Shown one piece after another: positions 21,279-27,406 of a stretch of 64,000 bases of DNA (position 1 is the first letter of the stretch; the number at the start of each line of letters is the position of its first letter). Position numbers and translations under genes: made by a program. Source of the DNA: an uncultured Candidatus Saccharibacteria bacterium. Its GTDB lineage: Bacteria; Patescibacteriota; Minisyncoccia; Phycocordibacterales; PALSA-1337. The DNA lies in assembly GCA_964412585.1 (NCBI GenBank), contig CAYPPJ010000001.1:149334-213333 (forward strand). The letters run 5' to 3'. The notes under the pieces were generated by a model that did not search any database, was not told the origin of the DNA, and saw nothing but the letters and a program-made list of their open reading frames with translations.

Positions 21279-22661
21279 TTACTTCTTCAACGCCTCAATG
21301 AGGAGCTTCGCAGCGTCCACCATCTCAGGCAGATTCTGCAGCTGGCCTTTGAGACTGATTCCCACACGCCCGATGACCGCGTACAACTGCTCTTCGGTCA
21401 TGTGAGTTGCCTTGGCAAGTGCGGCAGCCTTCTGCGGCGTGAAGTCATCCATGTTGGAGATCACGAAGATGGTCATGTCGCGATAGGCATTGACGATCGT
21501 GCCCATCACAGCCAACGAGGGTTTTGCTTCGGCCCGTTCAGGCTTGGGAGGTTTTTCACCTTTTGGTGTACGAGGCTTGTAGGGCCCGCGACTGGCTTTG
21601 CGGGAACCACTTTTCTCCGACGCGGTGCCAGCTTCATCCTTTGATTCGCCTGGCTTTTCCCCTGGCACGAATTCGTCCGGAATGGCCTTCGCCACAGCAT
21701 CAACCATGCGACCAAACTCGTTTTTGCCAGTGGCGTAACGAGCTTCAGCGCGCTTGAACACCGTCATGGCGTTACTTGCACTGGGCATGCCCTTTCCGAC
21801 CGCAATGTCGGCCCAAGGAACATCGAATTTCCGTGCCACGAAGACCACAGCTTCCTTGACCCGCGAATTGATGTCGCCAGATCCACGGACGCCGGTTGCA
21901 AAAACATCCGGATCCGCCTTGAGTGACTCGCAGAATGCGAGAATGAGGAACTCGATCAACGACCGAGGTTTCTTGGTTGCCATAGAATCACCGTTTCTTT
22001 CTTGGGGTTGTGCTGGGGCACTGACTGCGCCCCCAGCGTTTGTTGTTGCTTCGACAGGTTGCCGCCTCACCACCGTTTCCTCTGCCTTCTTATCGTCGGC
22101 CGGGGCTTCAGGTTTTGTTGGAGGCTTTTGGGCCACCACAGGAGGACGTAGTGGATCCGAAGGCTCCGGAGGAGCAGGCGACTCCACGAGCCGTGATGGA
22201 GGTGCTAGCCTCGGTGGAGCGATAACGCTACTGCCACCATTGAGACGAGCCTGAGACTTGTCCACAGGAAGGCAACTAAAGTGCCATTTCATGGGATGAG
22301 TCTTGCTCCGACATTCGAAGTCGAGCATTCCGTCGTCATTGACAGACTCAGGTGCGATGAAGATATCACCGTCATCAACCATGTTCATGGGTTTGTCTTC
22401 TTCGCCCATAAACCGAAAATCCCGTATCTGCCCTTTGCGATGCTGACCGAGGACGAGGAGATAGAGGTCATCTCCACTAAACGAAGCCGCTGCCCCCGCC
22501 TTATCTGTGGGGAAAAAGCTGTGGCGAATGCCGGCTTTGTGTAAAAAGTGAGCTGCCTTTGAATCCCGGCCAAGCTCAGCACCGTCGGAGACAAGGCGAA
22601 CCGTGTCTACCACCAAAACAATCTGACTAAGCGGAACCAACTCTGTCTGTTGTGAGCTCAT
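21279..22661 (-). CDS. hypothetical protein, GC-rich, with Pro-rich linker (possible degenerate metallophosphoesterase-like N-domain)
   Basis: 460 aa. N-terminus has GDDLYLLVLGQHR. The middle is PPRLAPPSRLVESPAPPEPSDPLRPPVVAQKPPTKPEAP. The C-terminus is alpha-helical. GC is clearly above flanking ftsA/ftsZ. Opposite-strand ORFs here look like antisense shadows. Confidence 0.55.
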   Translation of the reverse strand: MSSQQTELVPLSQIVLVVDTVRLVSDGAELGRDSKAAHFLHKAGIRHSFFPTDKAGAAASFSGDDLYLLVLGQHRKGQIRDFRFMGEEDKPMNMVDDGDIFIAPESVNDDGMLDFECRSKTHPMKWHFSCLPVDKSQARLNGGSSVIAPPRLAPPSRLVESPAPPEPSDPLRPPVVAQKPPTKPEAPADDKKAEETVVRRQPVEATTNAGGAVSAPAQPQERNGDSMATKKPRSLIEFLILAFCESLKADPDVFATGVRGSGDINSRVKEAVVFVARKFDVPWADIAVGKGMPSASNAMTVFKRAEARYATGKNEFGRMVDAVAKAIPDEFVPGEKPGESKDEAGTASEKSGSRKASRGPYKPRTPKGEKPPKPERAEAKPSLAVMGTIVNAYRDMTIFVISNMDDFTPQKAAALAKATHMTEEQLYAVIGRVGISLKGQLQNLPEMVDAAKLLIEALKK

Positions 22662-22967: not shown

Positions 22968-24170
22968 ATGCCCAACATTACTCCCGATATCGAAGCATTT
23001 GCACGCATCAAAGTACTTGGCGTTGGTGGTTCTGGTGGCAATGCAGTCAACCACATGATCTCCTCGAAAGTTCGCGGCGTTGATTTTATTGCGATCAATA
23101 CCGACTCACAGGATCTCCATCGCTCTCTCGCAAAGAAACGCGTTCATATTGGAAAAAATATCACCCGCGGACTCGGTACTGGCATGAATCCAGACCTTGG
23201 ACGACGTGCCGTCGAAGAGACTCGCGACGAGATCCAAGAAGTTGTTAAAGGCGCCGACATGGTGTTCGTAACCTGCGGACTCGGAGGCGGTACAGGCAGC
23301 GGCGCAAGCCCTATGGTCGCACGTGTTGCCAAGGAGCTCGGCTGTCTCACGGTCGGCGTTGTCACCAAGCCATTCTTCTTCGAAGGTCGCCAGCGTTCGC
23401 GCATTGCAGAAGCCGCTCTTGAGGATCTTCGCAAAGAAGTAGACGCCATCATTGTTATTCCGAACGATCGACTGCTTTCAGCTATCAGCAAGGAAACCAG
23501 CGTCAAAAATGCGTTTGCTATGTGTGATGAGATTTTGCGCCAAGCAGTCGAAGGCATCTCTGACCTCATTACCACACCAGGTCTCATCAACATCGACTTT
23601 GCCGACATTCGTACTGTTATGGAAAATGCCGGCTCTGCCCTCATGGGTATCGGTAATGCTTCAGGGGAAAACCGCGCTATCGAAGCAGCAAAGGCAGCCA
23701 TTAACTCACCACTTCTCGATGTGTCTATTACAGGCTCAAAGGGCGTCCTCTTCTCTATTGCTGGTGGTGAAGATCTCACTATGTTCGAAATCCAAGATGC
23801 CGCAAAGGTTATTACCGAGTCTATTGACCCTGAGGCCAAAATCATCTTCGGTACTGTCCGCGATGACAAGCTCAAGAAAAATGAAATCAAGATCACTGTT
23901 ATTGCGACTGGTTTTCCTGAGAGCAACACCGCTTCACCACGCACATCTTCACCTGTTTCGGCTGAGCCAACGATCGCTTCGATCATGAAGAGTGCCGCCG
24001 AAAAGGGTGACCGCGGCGAACGACCAGAACGAGGCAAGATTTTCAATACCATGTCTGACGTCAAACGAGACGCGGTTCCAGAAAAAAAGGTTGAAAAAGA
24101 AGAGAAGAAAGATGACGATGATGATTGGGGTGCGATACCGGCGTTTCTCCGAAGAAGTAAGCTTAAATAG
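22968..24170 (+). CDS. ftsZ: cell division GTPase FtsZ
   Basis: Tubulin signature GGGTGSG and GVGGSGGNAVNHM. Acidic/basic C-terminal tail. Confidence 0.95.
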   Translation: MPNITPDIEAFARIKVLGVGGSGGNAVNHMISSKVRGVDFIAINTDSQDLHRSLAKKRVHIGKNITRGLGTGMNPDLGRRAVEETRDEIQEVVKGADMVFVTCGLGGGTGSGASPMVARVAKELGCLTVGVVTKPFFFEGRQRSRIAEAALEDLRKEVDAIIVIPNDRLLSAISKETSVKNAFAMCDEILRQAVEGISDLITTPGLINIDFADIRTVMENAGSALMGIGNASGENRAIEAAKAAINSPLLDVSITGSKGVLFSIAGGEDLTMFEIQDAAKVITESIDPEAKIIFGTVRDDKLKKNEIKITVIATGFPESNTASPRTSSPVSAEPTIASIMKSAAEKGDRGERPERGKIFNTMSDVKRDAVPEKKVEKEEKKDDDDDWGAIPAFLRRSKLK

Positions 24171-24176
24171 AAGAAA

Positions 24177-24200
24177 ATCTCCCCGCGCGGGAGATTTTTT
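24177..24200 (+). terminator. rho-independent terminator
   Basis: ATCTCCC-cgcgc-GGGAGAT followed by TTTTTT. Confidence 0.6.
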
Positions 24201-24227
24201 GTATAAATATGCTACAATAACCCGACT

Positions 24228-25148
24228 ATGACCTACGACCTCGCAATCATCGGTGGTGGACCAGCTGGAGCAGCTGCGGCTGTCTATGCGGCCCGAAAGC
24301 GATTACGCTCAGTTTTCATCACCAAGGACTGGCTTGGTCAGAGTAATGTATCGGAAAAAATTGAGAACTGGGTGGGCACTATTGCTATTTCTGGCCTCGA
24401 CCTTTCGGAGAGTCTAAAAAAACACGCCAAGGCTTACGCAGATGGCGTCATTGATTTCAAAGAGAATGAACTGGCCACACTCATTACCAAAAATGACAAA
24501 TTTTTCACTATTACTACAACCAAAGGAAGTTACGAGGCGAAAACTGTCCTCATCGTTTCTGGAAGCAGTCGCCGAAAATTAACTGTTCCCGGTGCAGATA
24601 CCTACGAACATAAGGGGCTCACCTACTGTGCTTCATGCGATGGACCTCTGTATGCAGACCAAGACGTTGTTGTCGTCGGTGGAGGTAATGCAGGTTTTGA
24701 GAGCGCTGCCCAACTTCTTGCTTATTGTAAGAGTGTCACTCTCCTCTCTCGTAGCGAGTTCAAAGCTGATCCAGGCACAGTCGAGAAAGTCCTTAAGAAC
24801 CCAAAAATGAAAGCTATCGAGTACGCTTCACCAAAAGAGATCAAAGGTGGTCAATTTGTTACTTCCCTTTTATATACCGAAACAAAATCAGGAAAAGACA
24901 CCGAAATTCCTGTTACCGGCATCTTCGCAGAAGTTGGATCGGTGCCAAATACGAGTTTTGTAAAAGACCTCATCAAACTCGACAAGATTAATCGTGTCGT
25001 TACTGACCCAAAGAATCAGCGTACATCAGTCGAAGGTATCTGGGCCGCTGGAGATTGTACTGACGGACTCTATCAGCAGAATAATATTGCCGCAGGTGAT
25101 GCTGTGAAAGCGGTCGAGGATATTTATTTGTTTGTGCACGCGAAATAA
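24228..25148 (+). CDS. trxB: thioredoxin-disulfide reductase
   Basis: FAD motif IIGGGPAGAAAA and redox-active CASCDG. Confidence 0.85.
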   Translation: MTYDLAIIGGGPAGAAAAVYAARKRLRSVFITKDWLGQSNVSEKIENWVGTIAISGLDLSESLKKHAKAYADGVIDFKENELATLITKNDKFFTITTTKGSYEAKTVLIVSGSSRRKLTVPGADTYEHKGLTYCASCDGPLYADQDVVVVGGGNAGFESAAQLLAYCKSVTLLSRSEFKADPGTVEKVLKNPKMKAIEYASPKEIKGGQFVTSLLYTETKSGKDTEIPVTGIFAEVGSVPNTSFVKDLIKLDKINRVVTDPKNQRTSVEGIWAAGDCTDGLYQQNNIAAGDAVKAVEDIYLFVHAK

Positions 25149-25150
25149 GG

Positions 25151-25178
25151 TTGACACGGAATAACTTTTTGTTATAAT
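25151..25178 (+). promoter_or_regulatory. consensus sigma70 promoter TTGACA-N16-TATAAT
   Basis: Perfect hexamers 3 nt after the trxB stop. No plus-strand ORF follows. Transcription would run convergent into the mazF-like 3' end. Confidence 0.55.
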
Positions 25179-25185
25179 TCAAATA

Positions 25186-25300
25186 CAAATCGCCCGTTCG
25201 TGGGCAGCGCCATTCGAAAGAAAGGAGAAAAGTACCTTCGGGCCCACTCCGTGAAAACGGAGGCACAGAGACAGAAAATCCGTCAAAGTAAATCTTTGGC
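25186..25300 (+). ncRNA. candidate small structured RNA (unclassified)
   Basis: No ATG anywhere in the segment. Contains a GCCCG-UUCG-UGGGC tetraloop hairpin, a CUCCG-ugaaaa-CGGAG hairpin and a terminal 14-bp hairpin (GAAAATCCGTCAAAG/CTTTGGCGGATTTTC). The GTGGGC/GCCCAC pairing is mutually exclusive with the first hairpin. Confidence 0.35.
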
Positions 25301-25675
25301 GGATTTTCTCACTAGCTCAAACAGACTCGTCTCTAAGTAGCATATTCTTTTAGTTAGTCTTTTCGTATCAATAACTTTCAATTGAGTAATAACCGCTGTC
25401 GCTGTTTTTCCGTTTACTATTCCTATTTGGATACGAAAATGGTGCCTGAGCTGAGAGGAAGTCAGGGGCACGACGAGACACGTCGTAGCACTTAATCCTT
25501 TTAGAATTAGAACTGGCCGTCTATATTCACTACTTTTACCGTCATACTCGTCACCAAGATTAACACCAAGAGTACACCACCAAATCTCCCTCTCGTGATA
25601 ATATCCATGAGTTTTACTGTCGTAATGAAGCCGCTTTTTTTGTGTATCCCACCCATCAAAATCTTTTACTATCAT
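25283..25675 (-). CDS. MazF/PemK-family endoribonuclease toxin
   Basis: EIWWCTLGVNLGDEYDGKSSEYRRPVLIL...LVVPLTSS and IDTKRLTKRICYL align to MazF/EndoA by eye. Confidence 0.8.
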   Translation of the reverse strand: MIVKDFDGWDTQKKRLHYDSKTHGYYHEREIWWCTLGVNLGDEYDGKSSEYRRPVLILKGLSATTCLVVPLTSSQLRHHFRIQIGIVNGKTATAVITQLKVIDTKRLTKRICYLETSLFELVRKSAKDLL

Positions 25676-26226
25676 AGAGATTTTGATGTCTTGTAATCAG
25701 GCCCCACGCACGCACCCCACAATCCTTTTTTGTTCTTTTTTGCCTCTTTCTCAATTTCTCTAAACTCTCGCTGATGCTGATATGGTGTACCAAACGTATA
25801 TTCGCGCGCATATCCTTCCTTGAGTAGTTGCTCATTCACAAACACATCTCCTAGAAATACATACGCCAAATAGCGCCCGTATTTATCCTTTTCCTCTCTA
25901 TCTGGATTTAGTTTCAGTCTGACTGATTGTTCAGTGAGTAAATGCTTGGTTTCATCTGATGCTGCTTTACCATAACACTGGATCGGTTTGCGGGGATCGA
26001 CGGTCTCAGGCGTATCTATGCCGAGCATGCGAACCGTTTCAACATGACGTCCAATTTTGACATTGAATGTATCACCATCTTTGACCTCTGTGACCTGATA
26101 AAGTTCATTCTCATCTATAGACGGACCAGTAAACGCGCGAACAATTACATACCCAGTAAACACACACGTGCACACAATAAGCACGGTAACGACGACGAGA
26201 AACGTCGTGATTTTCTTGTATTCCAT
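25672..26226 (-). CDS. membrane-anchored thermonuclease (staphylococcal nuclease/SNase-like)
   Basis: Start set at the internal ATG at 26226 (MEYKKITTFLVVV TM anchor), because the longer ORF overruns tRNA-Glu. SNase motifs GDTFNV, VRMLGIDTPE, YGRYLAYVF. Its stop overlaps the mazF-like start by 4 nt. Confidence 0.8.
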   Translation of the reverse strand: MEYKKITTFLVVVTVLIVCTCVFTGYVIVRAFTGPSIDENELYQVTEVKDGDTFNVKIGRHVETVRMLGIDTPETVDPRKPIQCYGKAASDETKHLLTEQSVRLKLNPDREEKDKYGRYLAYVFLGDVFVNEQLLKEGYAREYTFGTPYQHQREFREIEKEAKKNKKGLWGACVGPDYKTSKSL

Positions 26227-26261
26227 TTTTCGTAATGATGACGTTGCAGGCGTCTTCCCAG

Positions 26262-26333
26262 TAGCCCTACGGGGAATCGAACCCCGATTACCGCCTTGAA
26301 AAGGCGATGTCCTAACCGTTAGACGATAGGGCC
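26262..26333 (-). tRNA. tRNA-Glu (TTC), CCA not encoded
   Basis: Acceptor GGCCCTA/TAGGGCT, D arm GTCT-AACGGTTA-GGAC, anticodon loop TTTTCAA, T arm CGGGG-TTCGATT-CCCCG. 72 nt. Confidence 0.85.
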
Positions 26334-26415
26334 AAACGTGTGTCAGTATCCTACCATTTTTTGAAAAAATGGCAAAAAATGCTAAGGTATAGCGGTTCAT
26401 CACCGCAACTACCTT

Positions 26416-26502
26416 GGAGAGGTGGCAGAGTGGTCGAATGCACCGCTTTCGAAAAGCGGCAGGGGCGCAAGCTCCTCGGGAGTTCGAATCTCCCCCTCTC
26501 CG
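26416..26502 (+). tRNA. tRNA-Ser (CGA), long variable arm
   Basis: Acceptor GGAGAGG/CCTCTCC, anticodon stem CCGCT/AGCGG with loop TTCGAAA, a roughly 20-nt variable arm, T arm GGGAG-TTCGAAT-CTCCC. 87 nt. Confidence 0.85.
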
Positions 26503-26545
26503 CTTTTATTATTGACTTTACCAATACACACGACTAGACTTCACG

Positions 26546-27406
26546 GTGGTTGTGCTTAGGAATCCGTTCCGAACACAAATAACTGCCCTTAACAAAGTAA
26601 ACGAAAGTGAGCTGAAAATGGATACGTCCAGCAGCATCGTTGCAACAAACAGAAGAATCACACCGAGAGAATACCTCCTTGACCGATCAACAATCACCAC
26701 TACCGAGGTTCCTGCGAGTGAATGGGTCAGTATCATCAGGGGAATTCTCGAGAAGTGCAAACCTCAACTGAAGTACTTTGATGGCTTCAAGCCAATCAAG
26801 GATCTGTTCCCTGCGTTCCACACCTCGATTGTGTTGTGGCATCAGCAAACTATGCGCTTTATGTTTCCTGAGCACATGGACCGGATGGACTGGGATACTA
26901 AGATTTGCCACTTGAGTATTTCTGGAGACTGCACATTCTCGGGTTGGGTAAACGAATTCCCCCTACCAAGCGGGGCCATCGTCAACGGACAAAACGATCT
27001 GTGGCGATTGGGGCTCACGGGTGGACAAGTTTTTGTGAGACAAAGTCTGTATATGTCAAACAAGGGTGACCTCCTTGTAGCATCCTTTTTTCACTACGCT
27101 GCAGGCGATGAGGACAGCCTCGTAGACCTGTCAGTAGCCAGCGACAAGGTGCTCCAAGAAATGATTCTCCGATCCCATGGCACCATTATAGACATACTCA
27201 CCTCTCTCAGGAAGATGTTGTCTGAGGGTAATGAGCGTCGTGCCCGCCAGCTAGCGGACCATCGGACTTTGCTTGATTACCTTGAGAATGTCAGCACCCA
27301 CATCAATGTCCTTGTTCATTGTCAGAGGTGTGGTGGCTCAAAAGAACGCTGGCGTGATTGCCCTCACTGTGAAATACAAGGCACATTTTCGTTTATGAAA
27401 AAGTGA
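26546..27406 (+). CDS. hypothetical protein with C-terminal zinc ribbon (CxxC-x11-CxxC)
   Basis: 286-aa ORF ending ...HCQRCGGSKERWRDCPHCE. No recognisable catalytic motif. The start may be the internal MDTSSS. Confidence 0.5.
   Translation: MVVLRNPFRTQITALNKVNESELKMDTSSSIVATNRRITPREYLLDRSTITTTEVPASEWVSIIRGILEKCKPQLKYFDGFKPIKDLFPAFHTSIVLWHQQTMRFMFPEHMDRMDWDTKICHLSISGDCTFSGWVNEFPLPSGAIVNGQNDLWRLGLTGGQVFVRQSLYMSNKGDLLVASFFHYAAGDEDSLVDLSVASDKVLQEMILRSHGTIIDILTSLRKMLSEGNERRARQLADHRTLLDYLENVSTHINVLVHCQRCGGSKERWRDCPHCEIQGTFSFMKK

Follow-up and report, generated by a model that had tools for sequence, protein, structure and literature searches.

A predicted small RNA, encoded convergently to a MazF-like toxin gene and just past its stop codon, is the unusual feature of a locus in an uncultured Candidatus Saccharibacteria bacterium. 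The locus lies in a stretch of 64,000 nucleotides (assembly GCA_964412585.1, contig CAYPPJ010000001.1, positions 149,334 to 213,333; the window), for which a first-pass annotation had reported a MazF-like endoribonuclease translationally coupled to a membrane-anchored thermonuclease, without an antitoxin gene. It is the coupling of the small RNA to this MazF subfamily, and not the pairing of the two nucleases, that sets the locus apart. One of the explanations offered at first was that MazF may be held in check by an RNA; the conserved convergent small RNA (25151-25312) had been overlooked at that time, and comparative evidence now supports the idea. We consider it probable that this RNA is the antitoxin of the MazF-like toxin, by either of two routes set out below, because a protein antitoxin is missing, the catalytic site of the toxin is intact and losses of toxin and RNA are asymmetric. 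The locus comprises the following features:

25151..25178, + strand: small-RNA promoter TTGACA, 16 nt, TG-n-TATAAT (12 of 12 consensus matches)
~25185..25312, + strand: predicted small RNA of ~128 nt, candidate RNA antitoxin (covariance model R1, fold z-score, covariation)
25274..25308, both strands: bidirectional intrinsic terminator hairpin of 15 bp, loop UAAAU on the + strand (sequence; covariation in relatives)
25283..25675, - strand: MazF/PemK-family endoribonuclease toxin, 130 aa (Pfam PF02452, 45.5 bits)
25672..26226, - strand: membrane-anchored staphylococcal-nuclease-family (SNase) thermonuclease, 184 aa (Pfam SNase, E=3.9e-28)
26261..26333, - strand: tRNA-Glu (UUC), 34 nt before the SNase start codon (ARAGORN; Rfam tRNA, 63.6 bits)
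26348..26375, - strand: putative promoter-like site TTGCCA-16-TG-TAGGAT upstream of tRNA-Glu (9 of 12 in a consensus scan)

Toxin and small RNA together form a two-gene cassette of ~530 bp (25149-25675) between the SNase gene and a thioredoxin-reductase-like (trxB-like) gene. The small-RNA promoter begins two bases past the trxB-like stop codon, and from its spacing the 5′ end of the RNA was placed at ~25185. The window copy is atypical in that two leader/hairpin modules precede the terminator (25274-25308). Module 1 (25185-25232) consists of the leader ACAAAUC, a UUCG hairpin, a GAAA hairpin and then AGAAAAG, module 2 (25233-25273) of a degenerate two-pair UUCG hairpin (ACC/GGC, with an A-C mismatch) and then the hairpin CUCCG-UGAAAA-CGGAG. 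Read on the MazF strand, arm 1 of the terminator encodes the residues R-K-S-A-K-D, and arm 2 comprises the last Leu codon, the stop codon (25283-25285) and 3′ untranslated region (UTR). Covariance model R1, described below, matches 25226-25312 with 58.8 bits (E=1.2e-10) and has no second copy within the 64 kb, and the fold of the whole RNA has a z-score of -5.3. Rfam 15 returned no family for the small RNA in the window at E≤1, the pemK motif RF02913 included.

Across the related loci of Patescibacteria, a common plan was found on the strand antisense to MazF: TTGACA/T, 16-17 nt, TATACT, ~6 nt, the leader ACAAGU, hairpin A (GCC-UUCG-GGC), UCG, hairpin B (5-8 pairs, loop mostly GNRA), an A-rich linker and the terminator, a 15-bp hairpin followed by UUUUCUUAU. 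Arm 1 of the consensus terminator is the complement of the toxin codons R-K-A-x-K-D, and arm 2 that of the last Leu codon, the stop codon and ~12 nt of 3′ UTR. When RNAalifold was applied to a plain MAFFT alignment, it recovered the terminator as well as hairpin A, and 13 of 16 pairs had compensatory changes. For model R1, 24 sequences of uniform geometry served as the seed; the model then re-aligned 83 true instances, in which 97.4% of the cells were paired and 20 of 23 pairs had changes on both sides (208 cells). None of 500 shuffles attained any of these measures, and sliding the partners by 1-3 columns lowered the paired fraction to 36-59%. The R1 alignment follows the model to which it was fitted, and the seed was selected with helices A and B among the criteria; the terminator was not such a criterion, and on it the MAFFT result agrees. 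Here 13 of 15 pairs had compensatory changes in the relatives, and 103 cells are G-U, which only the antisense strand (the + strand in the window) tolerates.

Several features show that the structure belongs to the strand antisense to MazF. The loop of hairpin A is UUCG in 75 of the 83 sequences, closed by a C-G pair, and the loops of hairpin B are GCAA, GAAA, GUAA, GCGA or UUCG. The antisense strand has 112 G-U cells vs 17 A-C cells in the 83 sequences; read on the MazF strand, the loops become CGAA or UUGC and the G-U pairs become C-A mismatches. A promoter matching the consensus at 9 or more of 12 positions ends 4 nt before R1 position 1 in 64 of 83 loci (77%), vs 5% of shuffled upstream sequences, and this fixed distance places the start of the transcript at the A of ACAAGU. 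The sequence of leader and hairpin A is conserved across species whose MazF-like proteins are only ~50% identical. A scan of 14 related Patescibacteria loci with Rfam 15 (E≤1) again matched no family, including RF02913, to the small RNA. Comparison thus supports the existence of the RNA, its structure, strand, own promoter and linkage to the toxin, whereas its transcript ends and abundance are predicted; it appears to be a well-supported structured RNA of Patescibacteria that has no match in Rfam 15. The literature searched contained no description of it, the contents of Shen et al. 2016 lying outside that search.

The RNA was linked to the toxin gene without exception. All 84 family genes with downstream sequence had an antisense R1 match (52-97 bits) at their 3′ end, namely those of 79 of 79 species loci of the Genome Taxonomy Database (GTDB), L001, L003, L012 and L016, and the second tandem paralogue in L005/L024; the species count leaves out L075, which is truncated at a contig end. 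Free-standing R1 copies were absent from the 638 kb searched. A search from the side of the RNA, with an exact 20-mer spanning leader and hairpin A, gave at least 120 metagenome loci, at least 95 of them with a convergent MazF-like gene 20-80 nt past the match. Among the matches listed, four were too short to judge, and six were dismissed as chance matches inside unrelated GC-rich genes that the model did not match. At least 15 (at least 12 unique) were orphan RNAs without an intact toxin. In the eight best-scoring orphans (71-98 bits), promoter, both hairpins and terminator are intact, and all that deletion has left of the toxin open reading frame (ORF) is its last 8-15 codons, the very portion that forms the terminator of the RNA. 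Orphan loci of this form include L199 (9867-9947 plus flank), L136, L150, L155, L163, L181 and L206. At L199 an in-frame mini-ORF of 16 codons (MKKDFD-DIRKTVKDML) fuses the first 6 and the last 10 codons of the toxin.

The toxin can therefore be lost while the RNA persists, and the reverse was never seen. Toxins without RNA were 0 of 84 vs ~11% of RNAs without toxin among the matches listed (Fisher p=0.0013), a comparison between two samples that were ascertained differently. Such a pattern would be expected if the protein were harmful without the RNA. Duplications occur as well: L024/L005 (3353-4444) has two complete toxin-plus-RNA cassettes head to tail, and at L145 (1231-1494) two small-RNA copies (39 and 83 bits) stand in a row before one toxin gene.

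The search for a protein antitoxin gave none, in the window or beside the related toxin genes. There is no MazE/PemI-like ORF upstream of the MazF-like gene, nor is there one in the 34 nt that separate tRNA-Glu from the SNase start. The downstream region 25149-25282 has only mechanical ORFs of 35, 46 and 88 aa. The absence of an antitoxin gene reported in the first-pass annotation therefore stands after the small-ORF check of both regions. For ten further small ORFs of the window, Pfam returned no match of antitoxin type, and an all-against-all BLAST of ORFs of at least 30 aa within 1 kb of 77 toxin genes revealed no conserved protein neighbour. The only recurrent BLAST "families" were translations, from both strands, of the conserved DNA just past the toxin stop codon, which led to the discovery of the small RNA. 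That this region might encode a small protein was considered and rejected, as no reading frame is conserved: lengths of 60-69 nt occur irrespective of frame, and 54 of 82 loci is the most in which any one frame stays open.

The 130-aa protein was confirmed as a member of the MazF family. It matches PemK_toxin (PF02452) over residues 29-127 with E=9.8e-12 and 45.5 bits, above the Pfam cutoff of 23.1, and a MazF fold is predicted. The concern that catalytic residues might be lacking proved unfounded: R53 and T72 align to R25 and T48 of B. subtilis MazF (hhalign probability 96%) and are invariant across 109 relatives. An AlphaFold2 model computed with these relatives as input (pLDDT 78.7) has an N-terminal helix at residues 6-19, the MazF barrel and a C-terminal helix, and the top 50 Foldseek matches in the PDB are all MazF, MoxT or EndoA (TM 0.56-0.75, E about 4e-6), placing the prediction in the MazF/Kid SH3-like barrel fold. 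The N-terminal helix belongs to an extension of ~28 residues outside the Pfam domain that is conserved in the subfamily (K4, F6, W9, K13). Mean column identity over the 109 sequences is 67%. PADLOC gave no match for the protein. From its family membership, it is predicted to be a sequence-specific endoribonuclease that inhibits growth.

Relatives of this protein occur in Patescibacteria and beyond. We found 190 indexed relatives, of which nearly all are 128 aa long and come from Patescibacteria, and a pattern scan with one genome per species gave 422 matches among 185,579 species genomes. Of 1.84 billion cluster representatives, a subfamily profile matched 2,927 at E≤1e-3 and 1,679 at E≤1e-10; most of the best 150 listed matches are full length and include the N-terminal extension. 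Divergent paralogues (30-38% identity) share the plan of TTGACA-17-TATACT, a small hairpin and a GC-rich hairpin beside the stop codon, most of them with a UACA-type leader. Homologues with 29-33% identity and an FDxWNxxKK N-terminus are located on plasmids of Campylobacter, Helicobacter and Nitratiruptor and on CJIE4 prophages, where they are annotated as type II toxins. All four of these Campylobacterota homologues that were inspected have GC-rich hairpins at the stop codon, and three have a clear opposite-strand promoter-like site 80-110 nt away, with L098 offering a weak candidate only. Their RNA sequences could not be aligned to ours, and R1 gave at most 12.5 bits (E about 0.3) on these loci. 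Rfam scans of seven plasmid and phage loci (E up to 1-10) likewise gave no known RNA family, RF02913 included. Plasmid matches from Firmicutes and Fusobacterium (L101-L103) cover the core domain only, and no relatives were found in IMG/VR contigs scanned with the family patterns.

The thermonuclease is as the first-pass annotation described it, with a Pfam match at 3.9e-28, an N-terminal anchor (hydrophobic residues 6-29), the motifs DGDT, RMLGIDTPE and KYGRYLAY legible in its translation, and a stop codon that overlaps the MazF-like start codon in ATGA at 25672-25675. Profile match and Ca-binding/catalytic motifs place it in the staphylococcal nuclease family (PF00565); the NCBIfam model NucI matches it with 1.3e-37, yet below the cutoff of that model. 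A longer, GTG-started version of the ORF (to 26403) is spurious, as it would traverse tRNA-Glu at 26261-26333. Homologues of the SNase number more than 1000 in Patescibacteria, and it is probably an ordinary extracellular nuclease at whose 3′ end the cassette merely sits. Comparison of neighbourhoods in related genomes pointed to an incidental association: the SNase gene adjoins the MazF-like gene in only one of 80 related species-level loci fetched, that of the nearest relative of the window (L017). Here the MazF-like proteins are 64% and the SNases 66.7% identical, and the pairing is limited to the small clade of the window; the ATGA overlap is kept in L012-L015 and L017. At other loci, the upstream gene belongs to a ribosomal protein operon or encodes RadC or a 1300-aa surface protein, or there is none on that strand. 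Stop-start overlaps with upstream genes, some of the same -4 type, and gaps of a few bases are common there.

Close relatives of the SNase indicate that the cassette is dispensable. The genomes with SNases of 90% (L108) and 85% identity (L104) have the same synteny of SNase, convergent trxB-like gene and ftsZ, without a MazF gene, and the stop codons of the SNase and trxB-like genes almost touch. At L106 (GCA_036170235.1, 3052-3240; SNase 73% identical), the ATGA overlap is kept, although only a toxin remnant of 52 aa follows, made of the first ~42 toxin codons, which a deletion has fused with the small-RNA promoter and 5′ module. The cassette thus appears to be an accessory insertion that is gained, lost and degraded independently of the SNase.

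Against this background, we find it hardly credible that SNase and MazF-like protein form a co-expressed defence or competition module with a ratio set by translational coupling, as had been suggested initially. The overlap retained in the relative with the 64% identical MazF-like protein, and the match of the SNase to the PADLOC SNase-domain candidate model, would fit such a module. Set against them are the single adjacency among 80 loci, unrelated upstream genes that in some cases have the same -4 overlap, the two SNase relatives in the same synteny that lack MazF, the missing PADLOC match for MazF, and the different compartments, the SNase being extracytoplasmic and MazF cytoplasmic. Nor does an orphan type II toxin, neutralised by a distant protein antitoxin or an unrecognised tiny ORF, offer more than a very improbable account. 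MazE-type antitoxins are small, diverse and able to evade profile searches, and 64 kb of the genome were examined. However, none of the ten small ORFs of the window has an antitoxin-type domain, no protein family is conserved beside the toxin across 77 loci, and the length of the downstream region differs between loci by numbers not divisible by three, with no frame open in more than 66% of loci.

Two further explanations concern the RNA itself. The hairpins could be a mere bidirectional terminator and stabilising 3′ UTR of the toxin mRNA or the neighbouring operon, with no separate RNA being made. The last hairpin does have the form of an intrinsic terminator in both directions, and the ftsZ/trxB-like transcript of the + strand would likewise stop there in the window. 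Such a function would explain neither the near-consensus antisense promoter at a fixed distance in most loci nor the cUUCGg/GNRA loops and G-U pairs that exist only on the antisense strand. It would not account for leader and hairpin A being kept in sequence while the proteins are ~50% identical, or for orphans that retain promoter, hairpins and terminator after deletion of the toxin, and we therefore regard it as quite improbable. Somewhat easier to entertain, though still improbable, is a ribonucleoprotein with a regulatory or housekeeping job in the cell, in which the MazF-like protein processes or binds the small RNA or the reverse. For a toxin the protein is unusually conserved (67% mean column identity in 109 sequences), its hosts have very small genomes in which the gene is often beside core genes, and the conservation of the RNA sequence suggests recognition by a protein. 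A cellular function of this kind is difficult to reconcile with a patchy distribution (422 matches among 185,579 species genomes), unrelated genomic contexts, tandem paralogues, loss or decay of the cassette in close relatives, deletions that are specific to the toxin and spare the RNA, and homologues on plasmids and prophages.

If the small RNA is the antitoxin, the system could work as follows. The toxin would be expressed from the tRNA-Glu/SNase transcript, in the window with the help of the ATGA stop-start overlap, and the small RNA from its near-consensus promoter on the opposite strand, ending in the hairpin that doubles as terminator of the toxin mRNA. In a type III-like route, the conserved 5′ leader and hairpins would block the MazF dimer by binding to it, possibly through its N-terminal helix; we rate this as a serious possibility, if somewhat short of an even chance. 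In a type I-like route, the 35-40 nt of perfect complementarity at the 3′ end would pair with the toxin mRNA, and RNase III would remove the stop codon and the protective hairpin; we rate this as somewhat less likely. Both routes may also operate together. Direct binding is favoured by the sequence conservation of leader and hairpin A, which pairing in cis does not need, and by the conserved basic and aromatic N-terminal helix of the subfamily, which is absent from MazF proteins partnered by MazE. The leader UACAAGU moreover resembles MazF-type recognition sites such as UACAU. Against direct binding speaks the lack of a repeat array, and a complex of RNA and protein is proposed only. In favour of the antisense route, the convergent overlap is universal and includes the stop codon, and action at the 3′ end has precedents among type I systems.

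Several points weigh against the interpretation of the RNA as an antitoxin. In both RNAs, the 35-40 nt of complementarity are tied up in stable hairpins whose loops have 5 nt, a poor start for pairing. We detected no cognate-specific pairing with the translation start region, where cognate duplexes had no advantage over non-cognate ones (p=0.56). Since conserved coding sequence contains one arm of the terminator, part of the R1 score comes free, and echoes of the palindrome on the opposite strand reach 17-36 bits in R1. The rarity of tandem modules weakens the analogy with the repeat-type antitoxins of type III systems. The RNA, its ends and its abundance are predictions at every locus, as are a toxic effect of the protein and protection from it by the RNA. 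It may be, though we think it rather less likely than not, that a canonical MazF is neutralised at the protein level by a single-module, convergent small RNA sharing its terminator, with the N-terminal helix as an RNA clamp.

The cassette shares traits with three types of toxin-antitoxin systems and fits none of them entirely. As in the type III systems ToxIN, CptIN and TenpIN, the toxin is an endoribonuclease, the proposed antitoxin is RNA, not protein, and a protein antitoxin gene is lacking; ToxN also has a Kid/MazF-like fold. However, the toxin is here a true PF02452 member and not of the ToxN/AbiQ, CptN or TenpN families, with no ToxN or CptN in the top 50 structural matches and no PADLOC match. 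Type III antitoxins are direct-repeat arrays upstream of the toxin in the same transcript, whereas this RNA is convergent, downstream, under its own promoter and usually of one module. A repeat-type antitoxin was rejected as a description since true tandem modules are rare, occurring in a few loci only, and most loci have a single one. Among type I systems, txpA/RatA and bsrG/SR4 of B. subtilis have convergent antisense RNAs that overlap the 3′ end of the toxin mRNA, with a strong promoter of their own and a common terminator region, as here. By prediction, our RNA is likewise antisense and encoded in cis, has a promoter of its own and overlaps the toxin mRNA in a terminator that covers the stop codon. 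The toxins of those systems are small hydrophobic membrane peptides, a trait typical of type I but not universal, whereas ours is a soluble 130-aa protein of MazF fold. The overlap is here just ~35-40 nt long and buried in hairpins, and the non-overlapping 5′ part is conserved in sequence, which pure cis-antisense control would not need. With the type II systems MazEF, PemIK and Kis-Kid, finally, the toxin shares family, fold and catalytic Arg/Thr. It differs in the N-terminal helix extension of ~28 residues, a longer beta1-beta2 loop and the absence of an upstream MazE/PemI gene; the adjacent, co-transcribed protein antitoxin gene that defines type II is found neither in the window nor in the 77 loci compared.

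SymE of E. coli has an AbrB-type fold, and its antisense RNA SymR overlaps the 5′ end and translation start of the message, not the 3′ end. The system resembles ours in that a nuclease-type toxin is under a cis-encoded antisense RNA instead of a protein, such control being here a proposal, although passages of PMC1891008 relate SymE to the antitoxin MazE and not to MazF. A further parallel may come from the plasmid pVir of C. jejuni, on which, as cited in PMC10470494 and PMC7826846, Shen et al. (2016, Mol Microbiol 101:909) reported a type I system whose protein toxin, cjpT, has an antisense RNA, cjrA, as antitoxin. pVir encodes a homologue of our subfamily (NC_005012 30630-31034; 29% identity) with the same N-terminal FDxWNxxKK motif, past whose stop codon a convergent promoter TTGATT-17-TG-TATAAT is located at ~85 nt, followed by hairpins. 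Promoter and hairpins lie in an 865-bp stretch without annotated genes (C. jejuni 81-176, L097:1480-2000, NC_005012 30630-31150). This PemK-like homologue may be CjpT, an identity to be taken as a lead rather than a match. An RNA-antitoxin variant was possibly anticipated by this one Campylobacter study. An association between RNA and PemK genes is also on record in Rfam, whose pemK RNA motif RF02913 (Weinberg et al. 2017) is described in outline as a conserved RNA structure near pemK genes, but it matched neither the window nor the 14 Patescibacteria and 7 plasmid and phage loci.

With regard to transcription of the locus, neither a promoter of its own nor an obvious ribosome-binding site was found for the MazF-like gene in the window, and the promoter-like site at 26348..26375 is the likely start of a tRNA-Glu/SNase/MazF-like unit. 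On the + strand, ftsZ and the trxB-like gene (22968-25312) lead into the small-RNA gene; the hairpin at 25274-25308 probably also terminates their operon, and read-through from it could add to the pool of small RNA. In L072 (3483-3872, - strand), a tmRNA gene is situated ~130 nt upstream of the toxin, which is probably a coincidence, noted here as stop-codon loss through antisense-directed cleavage would call on tmRNA. Elsewhere in the window, ftsA and ftsZ are separated by a 460-aa ORF (21279-22661, - strand) whose middle part is rich in proline and for which no Pfam match is recorded in the identical locus L006. A 286-aa ORF (26546-27406, + strand), directly after a divergent tRNA-Ser, ends in a CxxC...CPHC motif; it is called as 262 aa in identical loci and has no recorded Pfam match there. 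An Rfam sX4 match at 26402-26555 (+ strand; 33 bits vs a cutoff of 70) was discarded as the tRNA-Ser gene seen by another model.

Databases file this protein and its relatives as "type II PemK/MazF family toxin", yet no protein antitoxin is adjacent in the window or the 77 loci. The subfamily has hundreds of species-level members in addition to its relatives on Campylobacter and Helicobacter plasmids and Campylobacter prophages. A simple rule for annotation is to check the opposite strand just past the toxin stop codon. If neutralisation at the protein level is true, it would combine the architecture of type I with the action of type III, and ~1,700-2,900 sequence clusters of the subfamily, now called type II toxins, would form an RNA-antitoxin class of their own. 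Should the RNA be confirmed, the MazF family would join the toxins that are open to control by RNA, and a small RNA would be added to the biology of Patescibacteria, a group in which little of this kind has been described.

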